This document shows positions 3,801 to 56,200 of a stretch of DNA of 64,000 bases, in pieces. The position numbers were made by a program, and so were the translations under genes. Numbering within the stretch: the first letter of the stretch is position 1; each line of letters starts with the position of its first letter. The notes below the pieces were generated by a model, which saw only the letters and a list, made by a program, of their open reading frames with translations, searched no databases and had not been told where the DNA came from. This DNA is from Thermoplasmata archaeon (GTDB lineage: Archaea; Thermoplasmatota; Thermoplasmata; RBG-16-68-12; JAFNFQ01), in the NCBI GenBank assembly GCA_041489255.1, contig JBGPQV010000001.1:128001-192000 (forward strand), read 5' to 3'.

Positions 3801-5349
3801 CATCCATGTAGTCAGCTAGCAGGTCGCCTGTTCCGGCAGGTGTCGTGCCGCTGTATGTGTCGACCCAGACGACGTCGTACGCCATCAGCTGGGACAGAGT
3901 CATTGGCGTCGTCCCGAAGTTGTAGGAGTCAACCTTGATGCAGAAAGCACCGCACTGGGCTATGATGCCAGCCCTGAATGCGTTGATATAGGTGTCCACG
4001 CCCGTGGCGGTGTGGTACAGGAGTACATTGGCTCCGCCAGAGTACTTCTTGACCGGATTCCATGCAGTGTAGGTTCCGTCGGGCAGTTGCCAGCGGTACT
4101 GCCATGTGTCGTCCGAGCCCGGATCGTCAAACGTCGCAGACACCATCACAGGGCTGCCCTCGAGTCCCGGAGTCGGGTTCTGAACGATGTCATAAGTCTG
4201 CGGCGAGACATTGTTTACATCGACGAACGCGATGTCGCCGTAGGTCAACTCCTTCATTGTCGTTTGCCGCCACTCGAAGTCGATCATGGGCTCGTAAGTT
4301 GTCCCGCTGTTGTAGAGCACATTGGGGAATCTCTGAGGCGTCCCCGTAGCGTAGTACATCCCCATGAAGGAGACCTTCTCGAAAGAAACCGCCAAGTTAT
4401 TGTACGCATTCCAATAGCCGGTCGCACTCGCATCACTGTTCTTGTGACCCGATACCATGTATTCCTTGCCGCCAATCAAAGAAACGGCGGCAGGCAGGGT
4501 GCACCAGTACCAAGCGTATTGAGTCGGCATCGACGAGGGCGTGCATGTGCCGAGCTGTGTCTGCGTGGCATAATCCCAGATTCTTAGAGACCAAGGCGTC
4601 GTGAATGCATAGATGTAATAGAAGAAGCCGAGTCTGGTGGCGTCCATGTCCTGCTTTGCCAAGAACCTCCAGCCTATGTTCCCATATGCGAATCCGTAGG
4701 TGTAGGCCCCAGATTCGCCCCATGTGTTGCCATAGATGGTGACGGGTATTTTCGATATCCCGTCCCAGCCCTCGGCCCGGACGTTCGCGTAGTAGTTGTC
4801 GTTGTAAGTTTTGTCATAAGTCATCTGGGTCAACCAAGGCGTGTCCGCGATTCCATCATTGTTCCAGTCCCAGCGGAAGAAAATCAGGGTCGGGTCATCG
4901 GTCGTGATCTCGAAATGGATCGTGCAACTGCCCTCGAAGCATGTCGGCCCACCATAGGGACCGCCAGCATCGATGCCTGGACTGCGCGTCCCCGTGTCAT
5001 CGGTCTGCACGACTCGCGCCTTTATGCCGTTGCCGATATTTCCCGTGGATCCTTGTCCGTTTTGCCCTTCCACCAGAACATCGCGACCTTCGGCTTCCTG
5101 TTCATCGTACGGCTGATTGTCAGTAGTTGCCAATGGCAGGTTGTCTTCCTGCACTGCATTCGTGTCCAGAACCCCGAGGGTTGAAACCGTGGTTGTCTGA
5201 TCGGTTCTTGTTCCCGAGTCTCCTGCGGGGCCGCTCACTGCTGGCGTGGCATCCTTGTTTGAAACAAAGGATGTGACGCTCAGCCCCGAGCTGACCATCG
5301 CTATGACAATCAGCACGGAAAACGCCAATCGCACCCTCGCTGTTCTCAT
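874..5349 (-). CDS. Giant secreted/surface protein with PKD-like modules and inserted DUF4082-like, two GATase/ThuA-like and MAM/adhesin-like domains
   Basis: Signal peptide MRTARVRLAFSVLIVIAMV after a GGGAGGGAG SD. PKD-like motifs (DAGGPY, WDWNNDG, DPGSDD, WGDNGLYTV..V.DDD). A duplicated alpha/beta domain (LADY(M/L)DA..GGV...HP(I/V)..GVT.V...W.DG...N.I.WV). Confidence 0.75.
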   Translation of the reverse strand: MRTARVRLAFSVLIVIAMVSSGLSVTSFVSNKDATPAVSGPAGDSGTRTDQTTTVSTLGVLDTNAVQEDNLPLATTDNQPYDEQEAEGRDVLVEGQNGQGSTGNIGNGIKARVVQTDDTGTRSPGIDAGGPYGGPTCFEGSCTIHFEITTDDPTLIFFRWDWNNDGIADTPWLTQMTYDKTYNDNYYANVRAEGWDGISKIPVTIYGNTWGESGAYTYGFAYGNIGWRFLAKQDMDATRLGFFYYIYAFTTPWSLRIWDYATQTQLGTCTPSSMPTQYAWYWCTLPAAVSLIGGKEYMVSGHKNSDASATGYWNAYNNLAVSFEKVSFMGMYYATGTPQRFPNVLYNSGTTYEPMIDFEWRQTTMKELTYGDIAFVDVNNVSPQTYDIVQNPTPGLEGSPVMVSATFDDPGSDDTWQYRWQLPDGTYTAWNPVKKYSGGANVLLYHTATGVDTYINAFRAGIIAQCGAFCIKVDSYNFGTTPMTLSQLMAYDVVWVDTYSGTTPAGTGDLLADYMDAKGSQGSGGVIVNGRGPYNPGAWQILGRYFTDQYSPVPYGVSQWLYKNIGTIYVPGHPILDGVTSVSAYPHSQMFNTNPGATRIADWTDGAVMVAAKENPKVSNGARAVAMPWRSWTSADGTCNGDCIRMVANAIRWVSRQPDPVPLSMPISLPWNQLTFKDDDPMTTSPQDYMSVKVQVKDDDYQGSEGISTDALFQDFQKGTCTITQFPGGWTKAPTGTTGWRCQTITVWTSLGAYNSYSYSTYGTWSYLYSPTFSMTGVSYNNASIRWRNYWVANYAGGTQDGFIELSSDDGATYPYILAEFHHLNPATEDKYYELSLMGYPLTSTMKLRFRFYNNNDWYWGIDDVKVTLRSLRFIDTGLGEVAGTILVQNVPPAIIGGPTSVVRDESQSVLFSGWEISDPALMAQTEWFAYKLDFDDGTPAEWVYKGTLSPPKQDILFIHHACTTGNTCASYTIIANMLLSMDLVGSVTGYNWFEALSAPTLAYMLQFDVILYGGEWASSGSPAFEAAKLLVGNRLADYLDAHGGGVVTFMATYDLSSTYGELFSLTGRYMDQDYGPFEKAVYPFANAALGTIHYPAHPVVKGVTAVTSGTIHSGNLPTTAGGLRLASWNDGGAAVGVNEKDGNKRSCAINAYTAAYGGADASKLLRNCIGWVIGGIPSAEIPAVTHVWGDNGLYTVDVTVIDDDMGWTWDSVGNVPVADPTYTQTLSHRYIPVTVNNVDPTIQSAAAYANAELCLRMSGNKGNEATLAVMGTDGSYSTVTTTREPGKPAVGCLPTLRIDMTPNTKYTLTIAYDPTGDNGANPTWIFESTWPGGKMKELRRTFDSNDGPSVATIGNKEFKRLAIGSPLTFEAVATDPGSDDLVFAWAWSDLTPYNLHIYAHPGIFYTSATSDDFNLLPFKEPKFIFADNSVRSPEYDPITAHDTATHTFDESQMPYFLYVTLIVADDDNGNPYSSPYLWPGMDVEIVRIDL

Positions 5350-22419: not shown

Positions 22420-22483
22420 GCTGACGCTATCCGAGATGGCGGTAATAAGTGTTTGCGGTCTCGATGGCGGTCAGCGATCGCCC

Positions 22484-23047
22484 TCAGATTTTCCCAACGA
22501 GGTCCCAGCGAGGTTTCAGCGTCTTCTTGCCCGGCTCCCAGCTCGCGGGGCAGGCTTCTCTCTTGGTCTCCCTGACGTACTTCGCCGCCCGCAACTTTCT
22601 GAGCAGCTCCTTGACGCTCCTACCTATGTTGTTGTCGTGGATCTCAAATGCCTTGACGATCCCGTCTGGATCGATGACGAAGGTGCCCCTGTAGGCCACG
22701 CCTTCATCGCTTTTATAGACGCTAAATTCCCTAGCGAGGCTGCCCGTCGGGTCGGCGATCATGGGGAACCTGACCTTGTTCACGGTCTTCGAGGTGTCAT
22801 GCCATGCTTTGTGCGAGTGGACTGAGTCGGTGCTGGCGCTCAACACCTCGACGCCGAGTCTCTTGAACTGGTCATAGTTGTCGGCGAGTTCGCCGAGCTC
22901 CGTCGGGCAGACGAACGTGAAATCCCCGGGGTAGAACATGAGCACGACCCACTTCCCTTTGTAATCTGACAGATTGATTTTCTTGATTCCACCCTGGTGG
23001 TAAGCCCGCACCTCCAGGTCAGGGACCTTCTCGTTTATTGACACCAT
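22484..23047 (-). CDS. ahpC: 2-Cys peroxiredoxin (AhpC/Prx1)
   Basis: FYPGDFTFVCPTE and CPASW motifs. Start set at ATG 23047. Confidence 0.93.
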   Translation of the reverse strand: MVSINEKVPDLEVRAYHQGGIKKINLSDYKGKWVVLMFYPGDFTFVCPTELGELADNYDQFKRLGVEVLSASTDSVHSHKAWHDTSKTVNKVRFPMIADPTGSLAREFSVYKSDEGVAYRGTFVIDPDGIVKAFEIHDNNIGRSVKELLRKLRAAKYVRETKREACPASWEPGKKTLKPRWDLVGKI

Positions 23048-23194
23048 TTCGATTACGCCTTCCCGGTTCAATAGGCGGTAGCGGTTAATGAGTTTTTAGG
23101 ATTCCCGAGATGGTTGGCGTGGGTACCGCCACGGGAATAGGATTGATACTAAGCCACCGCAACCCTTTAACGATTGAGCACCATGGTGCCCGCC

Positions 23195-23269
23195 GGACCC
23201 GTGGCCTAGACAGGATATGGCACCGGCTTTCTAAGCCGGCGATCCCGGGTTCGAATCCCGGCGGGTCCG
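23195..23269 (+). tRNA. tRNA-Arg(TCT), copy 1 (TATA-like TTTAAC at 23166)
   Basis: Acceptor GGACCCG/CGGGTCC, anticodon arm CCGGC-TTTCTAA-GCCGG, GTTCGAATC T-arm. Confidence 0.96.
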
Positions 23270-23313
23270 TCTCAGACCGTATCGACCGCCCTGTTGGCTC
23301 TCGGATAATCAGA

Positions 23314-23703
23314 CTATTGAGAACGATTATGCTTCGTTGGTCTCGGCGGAGTCTTGCCGCGCAGGGTGCAGATGCTGAACTCGGCGTCCAAGGCAACTCT
23401 CCCACTCAGCTTCTTGACCTCTTCGAGGGCGGCGAGGGCACGTTGTTCGTCGAACGGATATACATCATTGGCTGCCCACACCCTCACATATGGATTGTCG
23501 TGGTCTAGGAGCGAGTTCAAGGCTTGCTTGCCCTCATCTCCAGCTCTCTTCAGTCCGCGTGCCGCCGCAATGACGCGCCTAGCGTATCGATTCACCGTCA
23601 GTGGATGTGAGTGAGCGTCACACGCGGCTCCGTACTTGATTGCGGCATCGACATAACGAGCCTTCAGTCGGGCGACGGCCCGAGATTCGTCTTGAATGCT
23701 CAT
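23314..23703 (-). CDS. DUF2019-like helical protein (putative toxin-immunity type), paralog 1
   Basis: YVDAA..YG......N......L...G..GKQAL..LLDHDNPYVRVWAA pattern. Homologous to 24030-24410. Confidence 0.65.
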   Translation of the reverse strand: MSIQDESRAVARLKARYVDAAIKYGAACDAHSHPLTVNRYARRVIAAARGLKRAGDEGKQALNSLLDHDNPYVRVWAANDVYPFDEQRALAALEEVKKLSGRVALDAEFSICTLRGKTPPRPTKHNRSQ

Positions 23704-23789
23704 GGCCGCCACTCGCCCCCTGAGATCATCTCGAGTACCTGCCAACCTCAACCCGAGTACCCATCATAAGATTTCCCGATGGTTTACGC

Positions 23790-23854
23790 CCTAGACAGGA
23801 TATGGCACCGGCTTTCTAAGCCGGCGATCCCGGGTTCGAATCCCGGCGGGTCCG
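23790..23854 (+). repeat. 5'-truncated identical copy of tRNA-Arg(TCT) (att-like direct repeat)
   Basis: Exact match to 23205-23269, lacking the first 10 nt. Identity with copy 1 extends 6 nt further (TCTCAG). Confidence 0.93.
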
Positions 23855-24029
23855 TCTCAGTCCATATAAACCGGCGTCATTCGAGCGGGATTGAGCGAAC
23901 ACGACTGATGCGCTTCCAGCCTCTGACCCTGAAAAATCCCCTTCCCCACTTCCAAGGGAGCAGCCCTCGATACTTCGCCTTCAGGCGAGAAGGATTCGAC
24001 GTGGACTGGGGTCTCTTTGATCCCCACTC

Positions 24030-24410
24030 TCAGGGGTGGAGCCGCCCCGCCCGCCACTCCCGCAAGACCATCTTTGCATTGAAGCCAACAATGCTTTTCT
24101 CCCTCGTCAAGGCCTCAATCATTTTCGTTGCTTCCGCTTCGTGATACTTCAGGTATATGCTCGCTGCGACCAAACGTACCCAAGGATTCGAATGCTCTAG
24201 TAGCGCATGAATCGCGTGCCGTCCGGCTTCTCCTTTCTTCTCCAAGCGCTTCCTGAGACTATCATAACGCTTGTACTGCTTGTTCGTCGTCTTGTAGTCG
24301 GCCGCATCGGCCGCAGCTCCATGCTTGGTGACTGCGTCCACGAACTCTTCGACCAAACTCGAGATGGATTCCGGATTGCGCAGAATGCGACTCTTCACCC
24401 GCGGCGGCAT
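24030..24410 (-). CDS. DUF2019-like helical protein, paralog 2
   Basis: FVDAV.KHGAA.....YKTTNKQY......L...G..GRHAI.ALLEHSNPWVRLVAA...FNAKM.LREWRAGRL pattern. Confidence 0.7.
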   Translation of the reverse strand: MPPRVKSRILRNPESISSLVEEFVDAVTKHGAAADAADYKTTNKQYKRYDSLRKRLEKKGEAGRHAIHALLEHSNPWVRLVAASIYLKYHEAEATKMIEALTREKSIVGFNAKMVLREWRAGRLHP

Positions 24411-24505
24411 TGGCGTTGGCGGGATATTAAGGTTGTATGGAACCGGGGGGAAAAGAAACTCCCGCCACCGCCACGGTTCGACGAGTGAATACCATAACGC
24501 CCCCC

Positions 24506-24580
24506 GGACCCGTGGCCTAGACAGGATATGGCACCGGCTTTCTAAGCCGGCGATCCCGGGTTCGAATCCCGGCGGGTCCG
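24506..24580 (+). tRNA. tRNA-Arg(TCT), second complete identical copy with degraded upstream TATA
   Basis: 75/75 identical to 23195-23269. Confidence 0.92.
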
Positions 24581-24739
24581 TCTATTCCCGAAGAAGGATA
24601 AAACTAATCAACCGTTTAGGCCAAAGTGGTCGTTCGACCTCTTTTCCTTTGGTTCCTGTCCCCCCAAGCTCCTGCCTGGAAACGGGCGGGGACACCTTTC
24701 CTCTTTTATACATTGGATTTATTGCCGCAATCGATTCAT

Positions 24740-24997
24740 ATGCCGAAGAAAGACTATCAGGGATATTTGTCTGTGATTGGGGAGGTGCTCAAACAGGATG
24801 CACTGGTGTTGAAGGCTGAAGTTGCGGGGAAGAAATCTTACGATGAGGGAACACTCACCGGCTATGCTCTCGCTCTCGACACCATGTTAGATTATCTTGA
24901 AATGTTCAACCTGAAACCTAAGGATTTAGGTTGGAAAGACTTCATTCCGGAGCGTGATTTATTGAGTGGCCGCAAGCCCATGAAAAGAAAGAAATGA
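24740..24997 (+). CDS. Small AT-rich hypothetical protein (85 aa), immunity-like
   Basis: MPKKDYQGYL..IG..LK..AL...YDEG.L.GY......M......F......LG.....PERDLL. TATA-like TTTTATAC ~30 nt upstream. Visibly more AT-rich than core genes. Confidence 0.7.
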   Translation: MPKKDYQGYLSVIGEVLKQDALVLKAEVAGKKSYDEGTLTGYALALDTMLDYLEMFNLKPKDLGWKDFIPERDLLSGRKPMKRKK

Positions 24998-25539
24998 GAA
25001 GTTAAGTCACGTTTCATGTTTCAGGGCAAGGGAACGATACGGAATCCGAATTGCAAGTAGGGAGTAGGGACTCGCTCTCCCGCACTCGGATCGAGGGCGG
25101 GGACACCATTGCGTCTCACCTCCCTTGACCGCGCCTGGCTTCCCCGAACCCAAGCTGTGATCGCAAGCGCTCGGACGATTATGTTCACGCAGCCCTGTCA
25201 CGTCCTCTACGTCGCCGGCATGCCATCGGCGACGCGCTCACTCGATGATTCGGGCCTCCACGGGGAACGATCCTTTTCCGCGTCTTTCCAACACGGGAAA
25301 TGCCTCGCTTTTTCGGAAGGTCCACCTCGTTCTCTCCTCGTTCACACCTCGCTCTCACCTGATATAGAGGCTTTACACTCGCCTTTCGAGGCTTTCTGAT
25401 CCTCGGCATACACGCGGGCATGGCGGCGATCAGCCCTCAAAAACCGCCAAGAACGCTGATTCTCCGCGAATCAATTAAGAGGAGGATGCGCGCATGACTT
25501 TGCGCCGTTTCACCTCGGCGGGAATCGGGGGAGAGGATC

Positions 25540-26127
25540 ATGGCGAAGATAACGAACATATTCGGTACCAAGTTCCGCGGTCGGATAGGCAAGGACATGG
25601 TCGCGACGTCGTGGAAGGGGCACGAGTACCTGCGCACGTACGTCGTCCCGCACGACCCGAAGACGGAGGACCAGCTGGCGCAGAGGGGCCTGCTCGGGAA
25701 GGCGGTGGAGGCATGGCGGGAGCTGTCGAAACCGCAGACCAGGTTCTTCAACGCCCTGGCGCACGGGATGTCCGGGTACAACCTCTTCATCCGCAGGCAC
25801 ATCAGGGCGGCTGTCGACGGGCGGGAGCTGGAGCTCCCCGCCGTGATGAGGTGGCGGACGGAGGGCGGGCAGCGCATGAAGGACGCGAGGCTGGTGGTCG
25901 CGCACGACGGACGTCACGTCTTCAACGACGACCTCGGGGACGGCGTGATCGAGATCGCGCTCACGAGGTCGGACGCGCCGTACAGCTTCGAGCTCAGGAA
26001 GGGACACCAGGAGGAGGTCGTGAAAGTATTCGAGAACGAACTGCAGGTTGACTTGCTGGCGGTCCTGGAGAGCGAGGCATTGGGCATCAAGCTCGTCCCG
26101 GACACGCCGGATCCGAAAGCACCATGA
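25540..26127 (+). CDS. DUF6266-like hypothetical protein
   Basis: FRGRIG...V..SWKG..Y.R....P.DPKT..QL.QR...W..L...Q...N..A..MSGYNLF pattern, GGGGGAGAGG SD. Confidence 0.6.
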   Translation: MAKITNIFGTKFRGRIGKDMVATSWKGHEYLRTYVVPHDPKTEDQLAQRGLLGKAVEAWRELSKPQTRFFNALAHGMSGYNLFIRRHIRAAVDGRELELPAVMRWRTEGGQRMKDARLVVAHDGRHVFNDDLGDGVIEIALTRSDAPYSFELRKGHQEEVVKVFENELQVDLLAVLESEALGIKLVPDTPDPKAP

Positions 26128-26238
26128 CGTGCAAGAGCTGGCGGGTCACACCGTCTGAGGTCGCTTCCCCCGCGCACTCTGAGAATGGATATCAGGAATC
26201 CCGCAACGAGGATGATCATTTCCATCGGCAATATCCGG

Positions 26239-26619
26239 GGTTCTGTTGAGCCAGGGCGAGCCTGACCGCTCCGTTGAATCTTCTCCAAGGAGTTCCTCAC
26301 CCGGGTCACCGCCACGTAGACTATCGCCTTCGTGACCGGATCTATGGCCACCCAGACGTAGCAGTCCCGCCTGCCCTCCATGAGGGGCGCCTCGTCCACG
26401 ACTACGATATCGGGCAGCCCCCCTTGGTGGAACATGCCCGCCATGGCCGTCCCGAACTTCTGTATCCAGCCCCAGACAGCCAGGTGGCTTCTCCTGCGCA
26501 CAACACCTTTTTCTTTCAGGAGACCTATCAGACCTTCGGTCCCACTCGCTTCTGGCATGTTTGATTACAAAACTGCATCAGGAGTGAAGGGACTTCCTTT
26601 TCGCTAACTTGACAGAACC
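26239..26619 (-). mobile_element. Internally deleted IS6-family element (381 bp) retaining both terminal inverted repeats
   Basis: Ends GGTTCTGTTGAGCCAG and reverse complement GGTTCTGTCAAGTTAG (12/16 match). Internal fragment RSHLAVWGWIQKF...VVDE......YVWVAIDP..K resembles an IS6 DDE transposase N-half. Confidence 0.8.
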
Positions 26620-53217: not shown

Positions 53218-56200
53218 CTATTCTTTCCTTGGCTTCCTGCCCAGCCTGCCCGCGTCGTCGCTCCTGCGAACCCTTTGCAGGAAGCGTGGAGCCCACCAGT
53301 TGTACTTCCCCGCCAAAACCATGATCGCCGGGACCAGGTAGATCCGCACGACCATCGAATCTATGAGCACGACGACGCCGAGAGCGAAACCCATCTCCTG
53401 CAGCAGGGGCAAGTGAGAGAGCATGAGGCTGAAGAATGCACCCGCCATGATGATGCCGCAGGCGCTGACTATCCCGCCGGTCCTCGATATGGAGGTCAGT
53501 ATGGCCTGCTTGTCCGTCTTGCCCTTGCTGACTTCCTCCCGAACTCTCGTGATTATGAAGATGTCATAGTCCATGCCGAGGCCCATGGCCAGCACGAAGA
53601 TGATCAGAGGCAGGACGAATACCATGTCCAAGCCCTTCCAGAGTTTGAAGACGATGATCGTGATGGCAAGGGTCCATGTGATGCTCAGCAGGATGGTGAG
53701 TATCGCCCTCAGCGGGATCAGAAGGGATCCGAGGACTATCATTAATATGATGAATAGGCCGATCCCCACGACGATTGCCATAACCTGGAGGTCCTGGTTG
53801 GTGCTGACGGCGACATCGCGGATTATGGCGGTGGCGCCTCCGATGTAGATCTGGCTCGACGCCAGGATCGGGTCGCTCCCCCGTATTCGTGCCACATCGC
53901 TTGCCACCTTGTCAATCGCGCCGACGGCATCCTCCGAGAATACCGTCGCGCTCAGCATGACGTATATCCTGGCCGTTCGATTGTCAAGGCCGACGTAGGG
54001 TCTGACGGACGTGATCAGTTGCTGCTTCTCCGCCGTAGAGAGCAACGCCCAATTCTTGTACGGGAGGATGGCTCCCTCAGGATTCACTGGTCCCTGAGTC
54101 GACTTCACTCCGAAGTTGTCATTCTGTACGCCCACCGTCAAGTTCTCCAAGGCGTACATCTTGGGAATCGACAGGTCGCCGCTTGCTGTGATTATCTCGT
54201 CGGGGAACCTGATCACGATGTAGCTTTTGTAGAAGTAACTCGCGCCGAAGGCGTTCGACATCGCGTCGAGTCCCTCGGAGCTCTCTGTTGCCGGAACCCC
54301 CGCCATGAAGTCGTATGAAGGCGGCTGCGTGACGACGAGGAATGTCGCCGGTATGGAGATGAGGATGGCGAAGAGGACGATGACCTCCGCGTTCCTCATG
54401 GAGAATCTCGCAGAGGCGGCGAAATACTTCCTGGAGAGGCTCTTGACTTTCTTGTTGCCTTTCTTGAATTGTCTCATCTTTCGGTTGTGCGGCCAGAAGA
54501 CCTTGTTGCCCACGAGCAGCACGAGCGAAGGTATCAGAGTTATGGAGAGGATAATCGCCACGGTGATGGCGAACCCCATCGAAATCCCCATGGTCTTCAC
54601 GACCGGGAAGCTGGCGAGGCCCAGGGCTGCGAAGCTGAGCAGAACCGCCCCGCCGCTGGTCGCGATGCTCTCTCCCGCCCACGTAACTGACTGCCTCACC
54701 GCCTCCTCGCGGCTCTTCCCGTCGAGCCTCTCGTCCCTGTACCTGGAGATCAGGAATATGGAGTAGTCCGTCCCCGCCGCCAGCAATATCGTCTGCAGGA
54801 CTGCGGGCGTGGTGAAGTCAATCGTGAAGAAGTGGGTGCCCAACATGTAGATGAACAGATTGCTGATGAAAATCGCGATGCCTATCGTGGCCACCGGAAC
54901 CGTCCAGGCGACTATCGACCGGAAGTAGAGGCCTATGAGGAGGATGACGAGCACGAGGGTCACGATGAACTCCGCTCCTCCCGAGAAGACGAGGCCTTGG
55001 TCGACTGAAGAGGCGGCTGAGCCAGTGACGTAGACACTGAATGTGACGCCAGTCTTTTCCTTGATCTCGCGGATCAGATCTCTGACGACCGCAACATTGC
55101 GTTCGATTGGGAGGGCGCCGTCATCCTCCTCGAAGTCGTCCGGTTCGCTGAAGCTGTAGCTCATCAGCATTATGGTGCGGTCAGGGCTGAAGAAGAAGGG
55201 GGATGGATCATACGGCAGGTGCAGGAGGCTCTCCAACTGGGCGAGGCTGTGCGCCCTGGTGAATGTCCTCGCGAATCCGAGAGTCTCATTGAAGGTGGCG
55301 TCGGCGGGCAGCGAGGTGTATACCTCCTGGAAGAAGGCCGCGCTGGCCGTCGGGATAAACGACGCGAAGGCAGTGAAAGTGTAGTTCTCGATGAGAGGCA
55401 TCTGGGCGAAGTTGCCGAGGCGGAACACGCTGACGAATCCGACCTGCAACGCCTTGACCTCTGGCGGTAAGGGCGCCTGATCGAGGAAGGCCGGCAATGC
55501 ATCGCGTATTACCCCGTCACCGCGCTGCTCAGGAGTCGCCCCGGTGTAGATCGGCTGGAAGAATGAAGCGCTCCAGTTGTCCGCGAAGGCTTGGAAGTAA
55601 TCTGAAGCGAGAGTCTGCTGCGAGGGTGGCACCGATGCCTGGATGTACCCCGTCGTGAGGCTGTGCGCCATGGAGTTGTTTGCCACCGTCCCGCCAAGCG
55701 CGGTCCATGTTGACACATAGTAGAACGGGATTCCATAATAGAGCCCGAGAAGACCCTGCACGTAGGTGACGTTTTCATGCAACGGCCAAGCGAGATTCTG
55801 ACCCAGGGAGAAGGCCATCGAGCGATAGATGCTGTAGATCGTCGACTGGCTCGGGTCGAGCATGTACCTGACAGGCTCGTCCAACGTTATCTGCTGGCCA
55901 CCCGTGAGGTTGTAGTTTAGCCTCTGGCCGGGGCTTATGTATTGCGATGCGGCGATGGCGTCATCGAGGTCGGAAGCGAAGATTCGGACATCGTCGCTTG
56001 TCGCATCAGGGGCGACTATGACCACGGCCAATGTGCTCTTGGCGGTGCCGGTGGGGAACTGCTCCGCGACAATCCTATCCGCTTCTGCGGATTCCGTATC
56101 CTTCGGGAGGAAACCTTGCACGGAGTAAGAGGTTATGTCATCGAGCTTCCAGAATTGATTGGCGACGATTGCCGCGGCGAACATGATGACCCAGAAAATC

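Follow-up and report, generated by a model that had tools for sequence, protein, structure and literature searches.

Tandem tRNA-bounded units with putative orphan immunity genes at the tRNA-Arg(TCT) gene of a Thermoplasmata archaeon

Integrase-less islets, immunity arrays and cassettes

In streptococci, CIMEs and their tandem accretion are described as units that are bounded by attL/attR-type repeats of the 3' part of a tRNA gene, carry no integration or transfer genes and lie in tandem at one site (PMC5704250). The same arrangement is seen at the tRNA-Arg(TCT) locus analysed here, where direct repeats of the target gene flank the units and no integration or transfer genes lie inside them. 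However, the units are only 0.6-0.7 kb long with one gene each and belong to an uncultured archaeon, one of them is closed by a full tRNA gene plus upstream region, and no integrase-bearing partner element is known. The ssrA islands of Dehalococcoides, as described, likewise lie in tandem 3' of a single-copy essential small-RNA gene, have direct repeats of its 3' end as borders, differ from strain to strain and in some cases lack an integration module, but they differ in having 20-bp repeats, a length of kilobases, a serine recombinase module in many of them and dehalogenase cargo (PMC3146451).

With respect to cargo, the rAID-1 loci of Bacteroidales are described as arrays of diverged orphan immunity genes against contact-dependent toxins, with repetitive intergenic sequences and an array structure that suggests active gene acquisition (bioRxiv 10.1101/471110). 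A putative orphan-immunity array with repetitive intergenic sequences is also found here, with two genes in the window (the whole stretch of 64,000 nucleotides that was analysed) and up to four in the related contig L034. In contrast to rAID-1, the repeats are tRNA copies, two or three genes are present in an archaeal host and no recombinase is adjacent; the 5' XerD-like tyrosine recombinase that heads the array as a hallmark of rAID-1 was not found at the locus. Orphan toxin-CT/immunity arrays 3' of Rhs, CDI and T6SS effector genes, of which the immunity arrays of V. cholerae are a known example (PMC5361080), are similar in that immunity genes outlast a lost or displaced toxin, and a truncated-CT-plus-immunity module in L034 is typical of them. 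Such arrays stay at the toxin locus, whereas the genes described here appear to have left the Rhs locus and to be parked between tRNA repeats.

Integrons also hold small, mostly single-gene cassettes between repeated recombination sites at one chromosomal site, and the initial annotation had called the array integron-like. Here, however, the boundaries are tRNA gene copies, and each gene may be driven by a promoter of its own rather than a common one. No intI, attI or attC is present, hence the locus is not an integron. Among the archaeal elements that integrate into tRNA genes, SSV1 has a tRNA-Arg gene as its target. Archaeal elements of this kind, with SSV-type or pNOB8-type integrases or from Thaumarchaeota, resemble the locus in their tRNA targets, the duplicated 3' part of the tRNA and the formation of arrays, but each brings an integrase of its own and measures at least several kilobases. 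In a Thaumarchaeota survey, the smallest cryptic integrated element bears an integrase and has a length of 2.6 kb, so that the units of 0.6-0.7 kb are far smaller (PMC6563490). The closest described counterparts are CIME-like accretion of integrase-less att-flanked islets at a tRNA gene and orphan-immunity arrays as in rAID-1 and at Rhs/T6SS loci. Since orphan-immunity arrays have been described, and so have integrase-less att-flanked islets stacked next to tRNA or tmRNA genes, the original suggestion of an undescribed system was too strong, yet we know of no earlier example of cassettes so small in an archaeon.

Architecture of the tRNA-Arg(TCT) locus

Three tRNA-Arg(TCT) segments that are 100% identical delimit the locus, namely two full genes and one copy without the first 8-10 nt, with start-to-start distances of 585 and 726 bp in a repeat search. 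ARAGORN calls tRNA-Arg(tct) at 23194-23271 and 24505-24582, the Rfam tRNA model scores 64.6 bits at both 23195-23269 and 24506-24580 and 29.8 bits at the partial copy (23798-23854), and the 32-nt pattern of the tRNA 3' end occurs three times in the window, as compared to 0.00 expected from 100 shuffles. Three identical segments, one of them partial, and units of 585 and 726 bp had been read from the letters at the outset, and this is confirmed. The features are as follows:

23151..23194, + strand: region U, upstream of tRNA copy 1; a TTTAA box (23166-23170) lies ~27 nt 5' of the tRNA
23195..23272, + strand: tRNA-Arg(TCT) copy 1 (T1), complete with 75 nt, and the common TCT
23273..23313, no strand: D-a, left-end spacer of cassette a; accompanies gene a in L032 and L034
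23314..23703, - strand: gene a, DUF2019/HEAT-like, 129 aa; presumed orphan immunity gene
23704..23789, no strand: spacer at the right end of cassette a, presumed to contain the promoter of a
23790..23857, + strand: partial tRNA-Arg copy t2, tRNA positions 11-75 plus TCT; non-functional as a tRNA
23858..24029, no strand: D-b, left-end spacer of cassette b
24030..24410, - strand: gene b, DUF2019 protein, 126 aa
24411..24505, no strand: U', right-end spacer of cassette b, with an A/T box at 24424-24430, ~20 nt before the start of b
24506..24583, + strand: tRNA-Arg(TCT) copy 3 (T3), full length plus the common TCT
24584..24656, no strand: D-c, flank 3' of copy 3, 73% identical in L034
24657..24705, + strand: R1, copy of a dispersed repeat of ~45 nt, with a weak hairpin and a T-rich tail
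24740..24997, + strand: gene c, 85 aa, no known family
25070..25110, + strand: R2, second copy of the dispersed repeat, 3' of gene c

In the whole genome 31 tRNAs were found, tRNA-Arg(TCT) genes being confined to this locus and t2 being the sole partial tRNA copy. The identity of t2 is continuous from 23790, which is tRNA position 11, to 23857, so that it extends three bases (TCT) past the tRNA end, and position 9 matches as well. Of the 48-nt apparent partial tRNA-Arg copies in family f7, the three that were inspected are not att sites but the 3' half of tRNA-Arg(TCG) genes.

The degenerate 3' flank that copies 1 and 2 had been said to share was reproduced, with agreement at 17 of 23 positions, and at copy 1 these 23 nt consist of the common TCT and the first bases of D-a. 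On the 5' side, copies 1 and 3 are preceded by ~45 nt with a similarity of roughly 70%, which at copy 3 are the tRNA-proximal 45 nt of U' and have no A/T box at -27. The upstream region U is itself a mosaic, because over its distal 21 nt it agrees fully with the single-copy locus of a congener, whereas over the proximal 20 nt it has another allele. The D-type flank, the right end of a and U' are each unique to the tRNA-Arg locus within the genome, and 84 of 84 positions of the right end of a (23704-23787) are identical in L034.

Inside the units, spacers of 41-172 nt surround one DUF2019 gene each. The two genes are co-directional, and each has an A/T-rich box ~20-27 nt before its start (read by eye), which is a candidate promoter. 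Gene b matches DUF2019 (PF09450) with E 3.2e-10 and 40.4 bits, above the Pfam gathering cut-off of 23.3 bits, and its AF2 model (pLDDT 89.4) has the DUF2019 structure 2i9c as best PDB match (TM 0.78/0.81), hence both score and fold place it in the family. Gene a, for which a TTG at 23751 is an alternative start (giving 145 aa), stays below the cut-off at 18.8 bits and matches HEAT_2 with E 5.7e-5, but can be aligned to b with 30% identity (34/113, E 1e-16). One antisense DUF2019-type gene per unit, as initially annotated, is thus confirmed; of the three proteins that were to be compared with DUF2019 and immunity families, b is positive, a falls short of the cut-off and c matches no family.

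Besides the copies at this locus, the genome contains 16 or more of the R repeat, of which some lie beside housekeeping genes; the repeat has no Rfam match and folds no better than its shuffles (z -0.9 to -1.7). R repeats are therefore rejected as a specific, attC-like cassette signal.

Variation of the units between strains and their proposed exchange

The presence, order and allele of the units differ among close relatives, a variability that had been anticipated for this locus and that is seen in one congener and three metagenome contigs, of which L032 and L034 may share one population. The congener G001 (same genus) matches 4448 nt of the left flank with 97.4% identity and has a single tRNA-Arg with no DUF2019 gene and no cassette. 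The order in L032 is tRNA-b-tRNA-a, as opposed to tRNA-a-partial tRNA-b-tRNA in the window, and the flank types D-a and D-b always accompany their own gene. Between the window and L034, 334 of 341 positions agree to the left of t2, 69 of 70 within t2 and 376 of 497 to its right. The drop from left to right (Fisher p 3e-22) marks t2 as the breakpoint at which between-strain divergence jumps, so that one a allele is joined to two b alleles exactly at the tRNA copy, and t2 is far better conserved than the DNA to its right (p 5e-7), although it is no functional tRNA. L034 also has a 1.9-kb insert at the R1 repeat, in which a PIN-domain gene accompanies a third DUF2019 gene, and its DUF2019 genes are set apart by tRNA copies or R repeats. 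Judged by sequence comparison, the units are discrete modules with tRNA copies as boundaries; the idea that they always hold a single gene is contradicted by one tRNA-to-tRNA interval of L034, which contains two DUF2019 genes and a toxin remnant.

On balance, we favour the view that the locus is a stack of integrase-less islets of 585 and 726 bp, bounded by tRNA repeats, with orphan immunity genes against Rhs C-terminal toxins of related archaea. The islets would sit at the sole tRNA-Arg(TCT) gene, each with one self-promoted DUF2019 gene on the strand opposite to the tRNA. An immunity gene freed from an Rhs toxin-immunity locus would end up between two copies of the tRNA sequence, and recombination between these flanking copies would loop the unit out as a circle with one copy. 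The circle would re-enter any resident tRNA-Arg copy wherever a genome has the same tRNA sequence, and the different orders and combinations across strains are proposed to result from this free choice of copy. Recombination between copies would also remove units, always leaving one intact tRNA gene, while toxin-bearing neighbours would select for retention of the genes. The partial copy t2 would stem from a site-specific, integrase-type event with tRNA positions 9/11-75 as attachment site, and later shuffling could have occurred by homologous recombination over 65-78 bp of identity or by one of four distant tyrosine recombinases, presumably via a circular intermediate. The right end of cassette b, with a full tRNA and a diverged upstream copy, resembles chromosomal DNA of outside origin more than it does a classical attP. 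No circle or empty-site joint was found in assembled contigs, which drop rare forms, so that this result is no evidence either way.

The units indicate that att-flanked islets can shrink to one gene plus promoter, and they suggest that copies of an essential tRNA may act as a common connector for stacking, reordering and swapping genes between strains. A more far-reaching reading, which we put forward tentatively, is that the tRNA-Arg locus is a dedicated cassette platform without a recombinase of its own, in which the tRNA copies serve as portable recombination sites, while minimal self-promoted immunity genes that were cut out of Rhs loci leave as ~0.6-kb circles, are exchanged within the genus and are re-inserted at any copy. 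As a formal variant, unit a might be present as a free circle in the strain of the window, since the public contigs bridge neither T1 nor t2 on both sides. If true, this platform would amount to an archaeal counterpart, in function, of integrons and rAID, using host recombination or an integrase acting in trans, and if the shuffling is recombinase-independent, it would offer a simple, general route to cassette arrays outside integrons.

The main competing explanation, which we regard as rather unlikely, holds that no integrase was ever involved and that RadA-type recombination and gene conversion via the tRNA and its upstream region piled up tRNA-Arg neighbourhood DNA of relatives in tandem, with t2 arising by later deletion. 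The blocks of identity (65-78 bp) are indeed long and perfect, cassette b ends in a full tRNA with a ~70% version of the native upstream region, and the 20 nt next to the tRNA are alleles independent of the distal upstream part, as if conversion tracts had passed the tRNA 5' end. Searches for a recombinase are also in keeping with it. The lack of a local integrase stated by the initial annotation is upheld, as none of the 42 window ORFs scanned has a Phage_integrase domain. The recommended search of the genome for tyrosine recombinases returned four PF00589 matches, all on other contigs and distant from the locus, none of which reaches the NCBIfam cut-off, and no tRNA-Arg-linked integrase was found in the genome. 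Viral contigs contain 0 matches to the exact 32-nt tRNA 3' end and 0 DUF2019 relatives, the tRNA 3' end followed by TCTCAG occurs in 1 of 79 genomes of the order, which is the window's own, and the exact tRNA 3' end was found elsewhere among genome contigs in one record only (L041, a MAG labelled 'Methanobacteriota archaeon'), so that neither a parent element nor an attP was found for the units in the viral contigs, the 79 genomes or the genome contigs. However, identity in t2 sets in abruptly at tRNA position 9-11, next to unrelated DNA on the left, which is a classic mark of attachment-site duplication, this start point is identical in the window and L034, and left-end flanks that agree at 17 of 23 positions although a and b are only 30% identical suggest conserved element ends.

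It is improbable that the units are fixed debris, that is, immobile deletion remnants of large integrative elements, with strain differences due to independent integrations and deletions. For bacteria, it is well documented that integrated elements decay to remnants between att sites and that accretion in tandem takes place at tRNA genes (PMC5704250; PMC3146451), mobile elements with tyrosine recombinases, archaeal ones included, are reported to build arrays by re-using one site (PMC6563490), and a truncated IS-type transposase lies 1.5 kb away (DDE_Tnp_IS240, E 0.24 only). Yet the small a unit occurs with the same ends at different positions and joined to different b alleles, for which independent decay would need identical end points, the 41-172 nt of non-coding DNA per unit are too small for an integrase remnant, and the toxin remnant of L034 points to an Rhs locus, and not to a typical element backbone, as the source of b.

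DUF2019 genes and an Rhs toxin

Contact-dependent toxin warfare and its immunity genes are, to our knowledge, almost unstudied in archaea. On the metagenome contig L033, a homologue of b (81% aa identity) has its start at 4953, overlapping the stop at 4956 of an Rhs toxin gene, and is followed by a truncated second DUF2019 copy. The full-length toxin (P0009) has 3313 aa with Laminin_G_3 and RHS_repeat domains (E 1.6e-26), and part of D-b (23938-24029) is homologous to the DNA 3' of the immunity gene in this Rhs locus. For the last ~100 aa of the toxin, 1684 relatives (E<=1e-3) were found in a set of 1.84 billion representatives; these relatives lie at the C-terminal end of proteins of ~100-3715 aa and are accompanied by RHS_repeat in 10 of the 16 scanned. 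In L034, a 109-codon remnant of the same toxin C-terminal domain (75% identity, E 2e-48) ends at the start of b'. A start/stop overlap, a truncated immunity copy, a toxin-remnant module and a C-terminal Rhs module are the standard signature of toxin-immunity systems.

A homologue directly 3' of a variable C-terminal toxin domain, as expected of an immunity gene, is thus found for b, while for a, of which two relatives were found, the sole toxin context is a' adjoining the toxin remnant in L034. From this genomic context, a and b are most likely orphan immunity genes with a putative neutralising activity, the immunity function of a being presumed along with that of b. The genes of the locus are intact and under constraint, as dN/dS is 0.26-0.44 in six of six ortholog pairs. 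The annotation of orphan immunity genes holds at least for b, which is an immunity-type gene whose toxin is missing from the genome: the search for a cognate toxin that had been advised found Rhs proteins in the window's genome (C8, 1883 aa; C32, at least 1666 aa), whereas the L033-type toxin domain was not found in the window, its genome or 401 genomes of the phylum. The domain has no PDB relative by sequence, no Pfam match at E<=1 and no NCBIfam match at E<=0.01, and its AF2 model, made for the domain alone, is too poor for a fold search (pLDDT 50.8). The archaeon would hence retain antidotes to toxins not made by itself, and antidotes kept without own toxins imply antagonism among related sediment archaea; the L033 Rhs C-terminal domain and gene b offer a concrete predicted toxin-immunity pair.

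We give little credence to the opposite reading, in which the DUF2019 genes encode HEAT-like proteins with another role and the Rhs adjacency in L033 is incidental. No function of DUF2019 has been tested, 2i9c, as the closest structure, comes from structural genomics, and a full-text literature search on DUF2019 found no link to toxins, so that the frequent presence of such genes in polymorphic-toxin neighbourhoods, stated by the initial annotation, found no counterpart in print. Distant DUF2019 genes of the order adjoin unrelated genes, with no Rhs protein at the six loci examined (seven locus ids, L007 and L051 being the same gene) and no tRNA at the four of them scanned with ARAGORN. Against it stand the overlap of the b-homologue start codon with the toxin stop codon, the truncated second DUF2019 copy next to it, the toxin-remnant-plus-b module that was kept in L034 and the nature of the upstream domain, which is a widespread and strictly C-terminal Rhs module.

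Local tandem duplication of one tRNA-plus-gene unit followed by divergence in place could account for the identical architecture of both units (tRNA part, related flank, antisense DUF2019 gene and promoter), but is most improbable given 30% identity of a and b as compared to 100% for the tRNA parts and 70-74% for the flanks, a cassette order that differs between strains, and a nearest relative of b that is the Rhs-linked gene on another organism's contig (84.6% nt identity, as compared to 57-65% aa for its surface proteins). The strong divergence of a and b, initially held to exclude a recent duplication, is accordingly confirmed, since b is 81% identical to the Rhs-linked gene elsewhere and only 30% to a.

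An assembly artefact, with contigs mis-joined or collapsed at the repeated tRNA segments, is hardly credible: the window is part of a metagenome-assembled genome, the Logan contigs stop at the tRNA copies after 28-30 nt of them and L034 ends in an odd inverted tRNA piece, but all unique segments (matched without a single difference by Logan contigs from the further runs X2, X3 and X4) and most junctions recur at 100% identity in runs of other samples, two independently assembled contigs traverse two or three tRNA copies, and record 22 of X4 spans from b across the whole of T3 to R1. Because they end inside the tRNA copies, Logan contigs leave the a-b order in the window's own strain unconfirmed, and their cover has gaps, for example at 23852-24045 in X2 and in the peroxiredoxin region in X5, which carry no weight as evidence because rare forms drop out of contigs.

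Gene c, which is the third small gene of the initial annotation and lies 3' of R1, has no family in Pfam, PADLOC or NCBIfam, and its best score against the atlas (0.85) is a lead only; in L034 it is 92.5% identical at the nucleotide level, with a dN/dS of 0.26.

Structure of the tRNA-Arg(TCT) locus

The window (contig C1, 128001-192000) comes from a 2.74-Mb MAG of 41 contigs and is archaeal, as it encodes deoxyhypusine synthase, the primase large subunit and TruD. The initial annotation had placed at 23153..24997 an integron-like array of single-gene immunity cassettes delimited by tRNA-Arg(TCT) copies, and its coordinates and description of the locus proved correct by ARAGORN, Rfam, pattern count and copy spacings (585 and 726 bp). 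A 32-nt pattern of the tRNA 3' end occurs three times in the window, against 0 expected (100 shuffles).

Features of the locus (window positions)
23194-23271, plus: tRNA-Arg(tct), full copy T1 (ARAGORN; Rfam 64.6 bits)
23314-23703, minus: gene a, 129 aa (DUF2019 18.8 bits, under cut-off)
23798-23854, plus: Rfam match of the partial tRNA copy t2 (29.8 bits)
24030-24410, minus: gene b, 126 aa (DUF2019 40.4 bits, Pfam cut-off 23.3)
24505-24582, plus: tRNA-Arg(tct), full copy T3 (ARAGORN; Rfam 64.6 bits)
24740-24997, plus: gene c, 85 aa, without recognisable family

T1 and T3 are the sole tRNA-Arg(TCT) genes, and t2 the sole partial tRNA copy, genome-wide. Identity in t2 begins at 23790 (tRNA position 11) and ends with a shared TCT at 23857, and the sequence left of its start is unrelated to the tRNA. 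The ~45 nt upstream of T1 and of T3 are roughly 70% identical, and the downstream flanks of T1 and t2 match at 17/23 positions. The G+C content dips to 52.6% at 24001-25000, spanning b, T3 and c, compared with 56-62% in the adjoining kilobases.

In Logan contigs from four other sequencing runs, unique segments had 0 differences in the records shown, except for run X5, whose upstream sequence is different. X4 record 22 is continuous from b across all of T3 to the first copy of a dispersed repeat (R, discussed below), and X3 record 14 from t2 across b into T3. The remaining contigs end 28-30 nt inside the tRNA copies because the graph was built on 31-mers; T1 and the left side of t2 are thus unbridged, so that the a-b order in the window's strain rests on the original assembly together with L034, a metagenome contig. 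No excision or empty-site joints were found among the assembled Logan contigs, which drop rare forms.

Of the three proteins that the initial annotation proposed to search against DUF2019 and immunity families, b matches DUF2019; a scores under the cut-off but aligns to b (E 1e-16) at 30% identity, in keeping with the strong divergence described initially, and c matched no family in profile searches including Pfam, PADLOC and NCBIfam. The AF2 model of b is a six-helix repeat (pLDDT 89.4); among PDB entries it clearly matches only 2i9c, a DUF2019 structure (TM 0.78/0.81). The family is rare among nearby genomes, being present in 4/41 relatives at E<=0.01 and in 5/401 genomes of the class at E<=1e-5, the window's genome counted in both, and that genome has no DUF2019 matches other than a and b. 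Orthologous gene pairs are all intact, with dN/dS of 0.26-0.44 in 6/6 pairs.

Arrangement of the units among relatives

Each tRNA copy was typed by its flanking sequences, namely the regions upstream of T1 (U) and T3 (U') and the flanks following T1, t2 and T3 (D-a, D-b, D-c).

Order of elements in the window and its relatives
Window: U, T1, D-a, a, spacer, t2, D-b, b, U', T3, D-c, R, c, R
G001, a congener: one tRNA with U-type upstream; unrelated 1.4 kb (putative 378-aa membrane protein); deoxyhypusine synthase
L032, entire metagenome contig, 1326 bp: native upstream, tRNA, D-b, b, U'-type, tRNA, D-a, a
L034, entire contig, 4795 bp, first part: a, spacer, partial tRNA, D-b', b', toxin remnant, a', tRNA, D-c
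L034, after D-c: extra 1.9 kb (third DUF2019 gene, PIN-domain gene), then c

Content, as the initial annotation had anticipated, and also order differ among these four, and the downstream flank type stays with its gene in every arrangement typed. Along 4448 nt of left flank, G001 and the window share 97.4% identity, but G001 has no DUF2019 gene; the a/b order in L032 is opposite to that of the window, and its second tRNA has A for G at position 1. The units hold single genes in the window, as claimed, but an interval in L034 holds more than one, including a', which is 64-66% identical to a in amino acids.

The strongest single result for modularity is a shift in identity located precisely at a tRNA copy (Fisher p 3e-22): the window and L034 are identical at 334/341 positions in part of a and the spacer and at 69/70 in the partial tRNA, but at 376/497 to its right (D-b 65%, b 81.5%). 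Against L032, the a unit is identical at 331/340 positions and the b unit at 510/553 (p 0.001). By these alignments, the tRNA-bounded units behave as modules. Alleles of the 20 nt directly upstream of the tRNA do not track the distal upstream sequence, which suggests that exchange tracts reach past the tRNA.

The upstream side of the tRNA is variable too, as a peroxiredoxin gene (AhpC-TSA, E 6e-42; 22448-23153), located between a 115-aa gene and T1, is missing there in G001 (88 nt in its place) and L032 (~60 nt), and run X5 has a different sequence again after 22457. In G001, an apparent 3' fragment of a surface-protein gene, seen by eye, directly follows the single tRNA-Arg (contig C75, L031 6935-7180), hence the congener's site is itself rearranged and is no pristine empty site. 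At its end (4680-4795), L034 carries an inverted upstream-tRNA-D-a piece joined to the middle of a through an 11-nt microhomology common to the U' spacer and the coding sequence of a; the piece reflects either a genuine foldback/inversion or a chimera at the contig end.

Association of b homologues with a probable Rhs toxin

One metagenome scan with b as query recovered three contigs. In L033 (portion of a 22.9-kb contig), a b homologue (81% identical) starts at 4953. Its beginning overlaps the stop codon, at 4956, of a gene whose product contains Laminin_G_3 and RHS_repeat domains (E 1.6e-26), and a second, truncated DUF2019 copy comes after it. Judged by sequence, this pair has the organisation typical of a polymorphic Rhs toxin and its immunity gene. 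The last ~100 residues of the Rhs protein lie outside all Pfam and NCBIfam families; among 1.84 billion representatives, 1684 are related to them at E<=1e-3 and 926 at 1e-10. Among the 150 matches listed, the domain is C-terminal (e.g., 3185-3313/3313, 1592-1687/1689, 3613-3712/3715), with a few ending ~30 residues short (P0076, P0118), and RHS_repeat was found in 10/16 relatives scanned. L034 retains a 109-codon remnant of this toxin domain (75% identity, E 2e-48) that ends at the start of b'.

The cognate toxin, which the initial annotation had proposed to seek in the genome, is absent, as the toxin domain was found neither in the window or its genome nor among 401 genomes of the phylum. Given the pairing in L033, the remnant in L034 and this absence, b is most likely an orphan immunity gene, as had been proposed for both genes; for a, we infer the same from homology and from the position of a' beside the toxin remnant. 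The L033 organism is more distant, its surface proteins being 57-65% identical to those of the window's genome, whereas the b region is 84.6% identical in DNA. The latter genome encodes Rhs proteins with other C-termini, each gene followed by small ORFs without known family, which are probably toxin-immunity pairs of their own:

C8:8311-13962 (L047 2311-7962): Rhs-repeat protein, 1883 aa
C32 (L048 19-5019): Rhs-repeat protein, at least 1666 aa
C20:6-3836: third Rhs-repeat protein, partial

Mechanism and comparison with known systems

An integron, as 'integron-like' would imply, was ruled out, without intI, attI or attC at the locus; of the initial annotation, the observation stands and the interpretation in part, as to modules and the orphan b. 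On balance, we lean slightly towards integrase-less islets, bounded by tRNA-derived repeats and stacked at the tRNA-Arg gene, each with one orphan immunity gene, probably self-promoted, and reshuffled via the tRNA copies. That t2 is truncated at a sharp edge speaks for one or more site-specific integrations, for which tRNA positions 9/11-75 would be the attachment site. Excision, re-entry at any copy and loss would have followed, all via 65-78 bp of identity. Since no other tRNA of the genome has this anticodon, deletion of all copies would be lethal, and this would stabilise the platform.

The agent could be general homologous recombination or a tyrosine recombinase; the suggested search did find four of these in the genome, all on contigs other than the window's and none reaching an NCBIfam cut-off. 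For unit b, homologous exchange is favoured, because upstream regions are mosaic and the unit ends in a full tRNA with a diverged promoter. One recombinase ORF is listed here:

C18:53283-54629 (L037 937-2283), same strand as tRNA-Leu(CAA): tyrosine-recombinase ORF, 448 aa

It starts 13 nt before tRNA-Leu(CAA) (53296-53380) and reads through the tRNA gene, an arrangement resembling that of integrases with the attachment site inside their own gene; a second tRNA-Leu fragment was not found in the genome assembly.

Cis-mobilizable elements (CIMEs) with tRNA-gene accretion (PMC5704250) and the Dehalococcoides ssrA islands (PMC3146451) are likewise att-flanked, integrase-less tandem units at a small-RNA gene, but are bacterial and far larger. 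Bacteroidales rAID-1, as outlined in bioRxiv 10.1101/471110, is alike in function, consolidating orphan immunity genes between repetitive intergenic sequences, but is defined by an adjacent XerD-like recombinase, which the present locus does not have. Rhs and T6SS loci commonly carry orphan CT-immunity modules (PMC5361080), whereas in the present case these have been relocated to a tRNA. Integrated elements of archaea use the same tRNA sites repeatedly and occur in arrays; in the thaumarchaeal survey, the smallest of the cryptic ones measures 2.6 kb and has an integrase (PMC6563490). Open-access full text yielded no account of archaeal immunity cassettes that hold one gene and are bounded by tRNA copies. 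The locus is akin to known att-flanked islets and orphan-immunity arrays, and stands out by its minimal size, archaeal host and strain-to-strain shuffling.

The repeat R is ~45 nt long, with a weak hairpin, a T-rich tail and no match in Rfam.

Copies of R
Window: 24657-24705 and 25070-25110, bracketing c
L034: ~2465-2415, 1807-1754, 514-460 and 110-52, bracketing the third DUF2019 gene, the PIN-domain gene and c
Genome: C3:153.8-164 kb; C6:14.9-16.5 kb and 121-127 kb; C18:39172; others

At least 16 further copies exist in the genome, several clustered and some adjoining housekeeping genes. Two copies sharing ~19 nt enclose the 1.9 kb by which L034 differs from the window, and R may mark recombination-prone spots. 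A probable IS remnant lies within the strain-specific 3.1 kb from T3 to deoxyhypusine synthase: a 214-aa ORF (25914-26558, minus) that weakly matches an IS240-type DDE transposase (E 0.24) and shows, by eye, a truncated DDE N-terminal motif.
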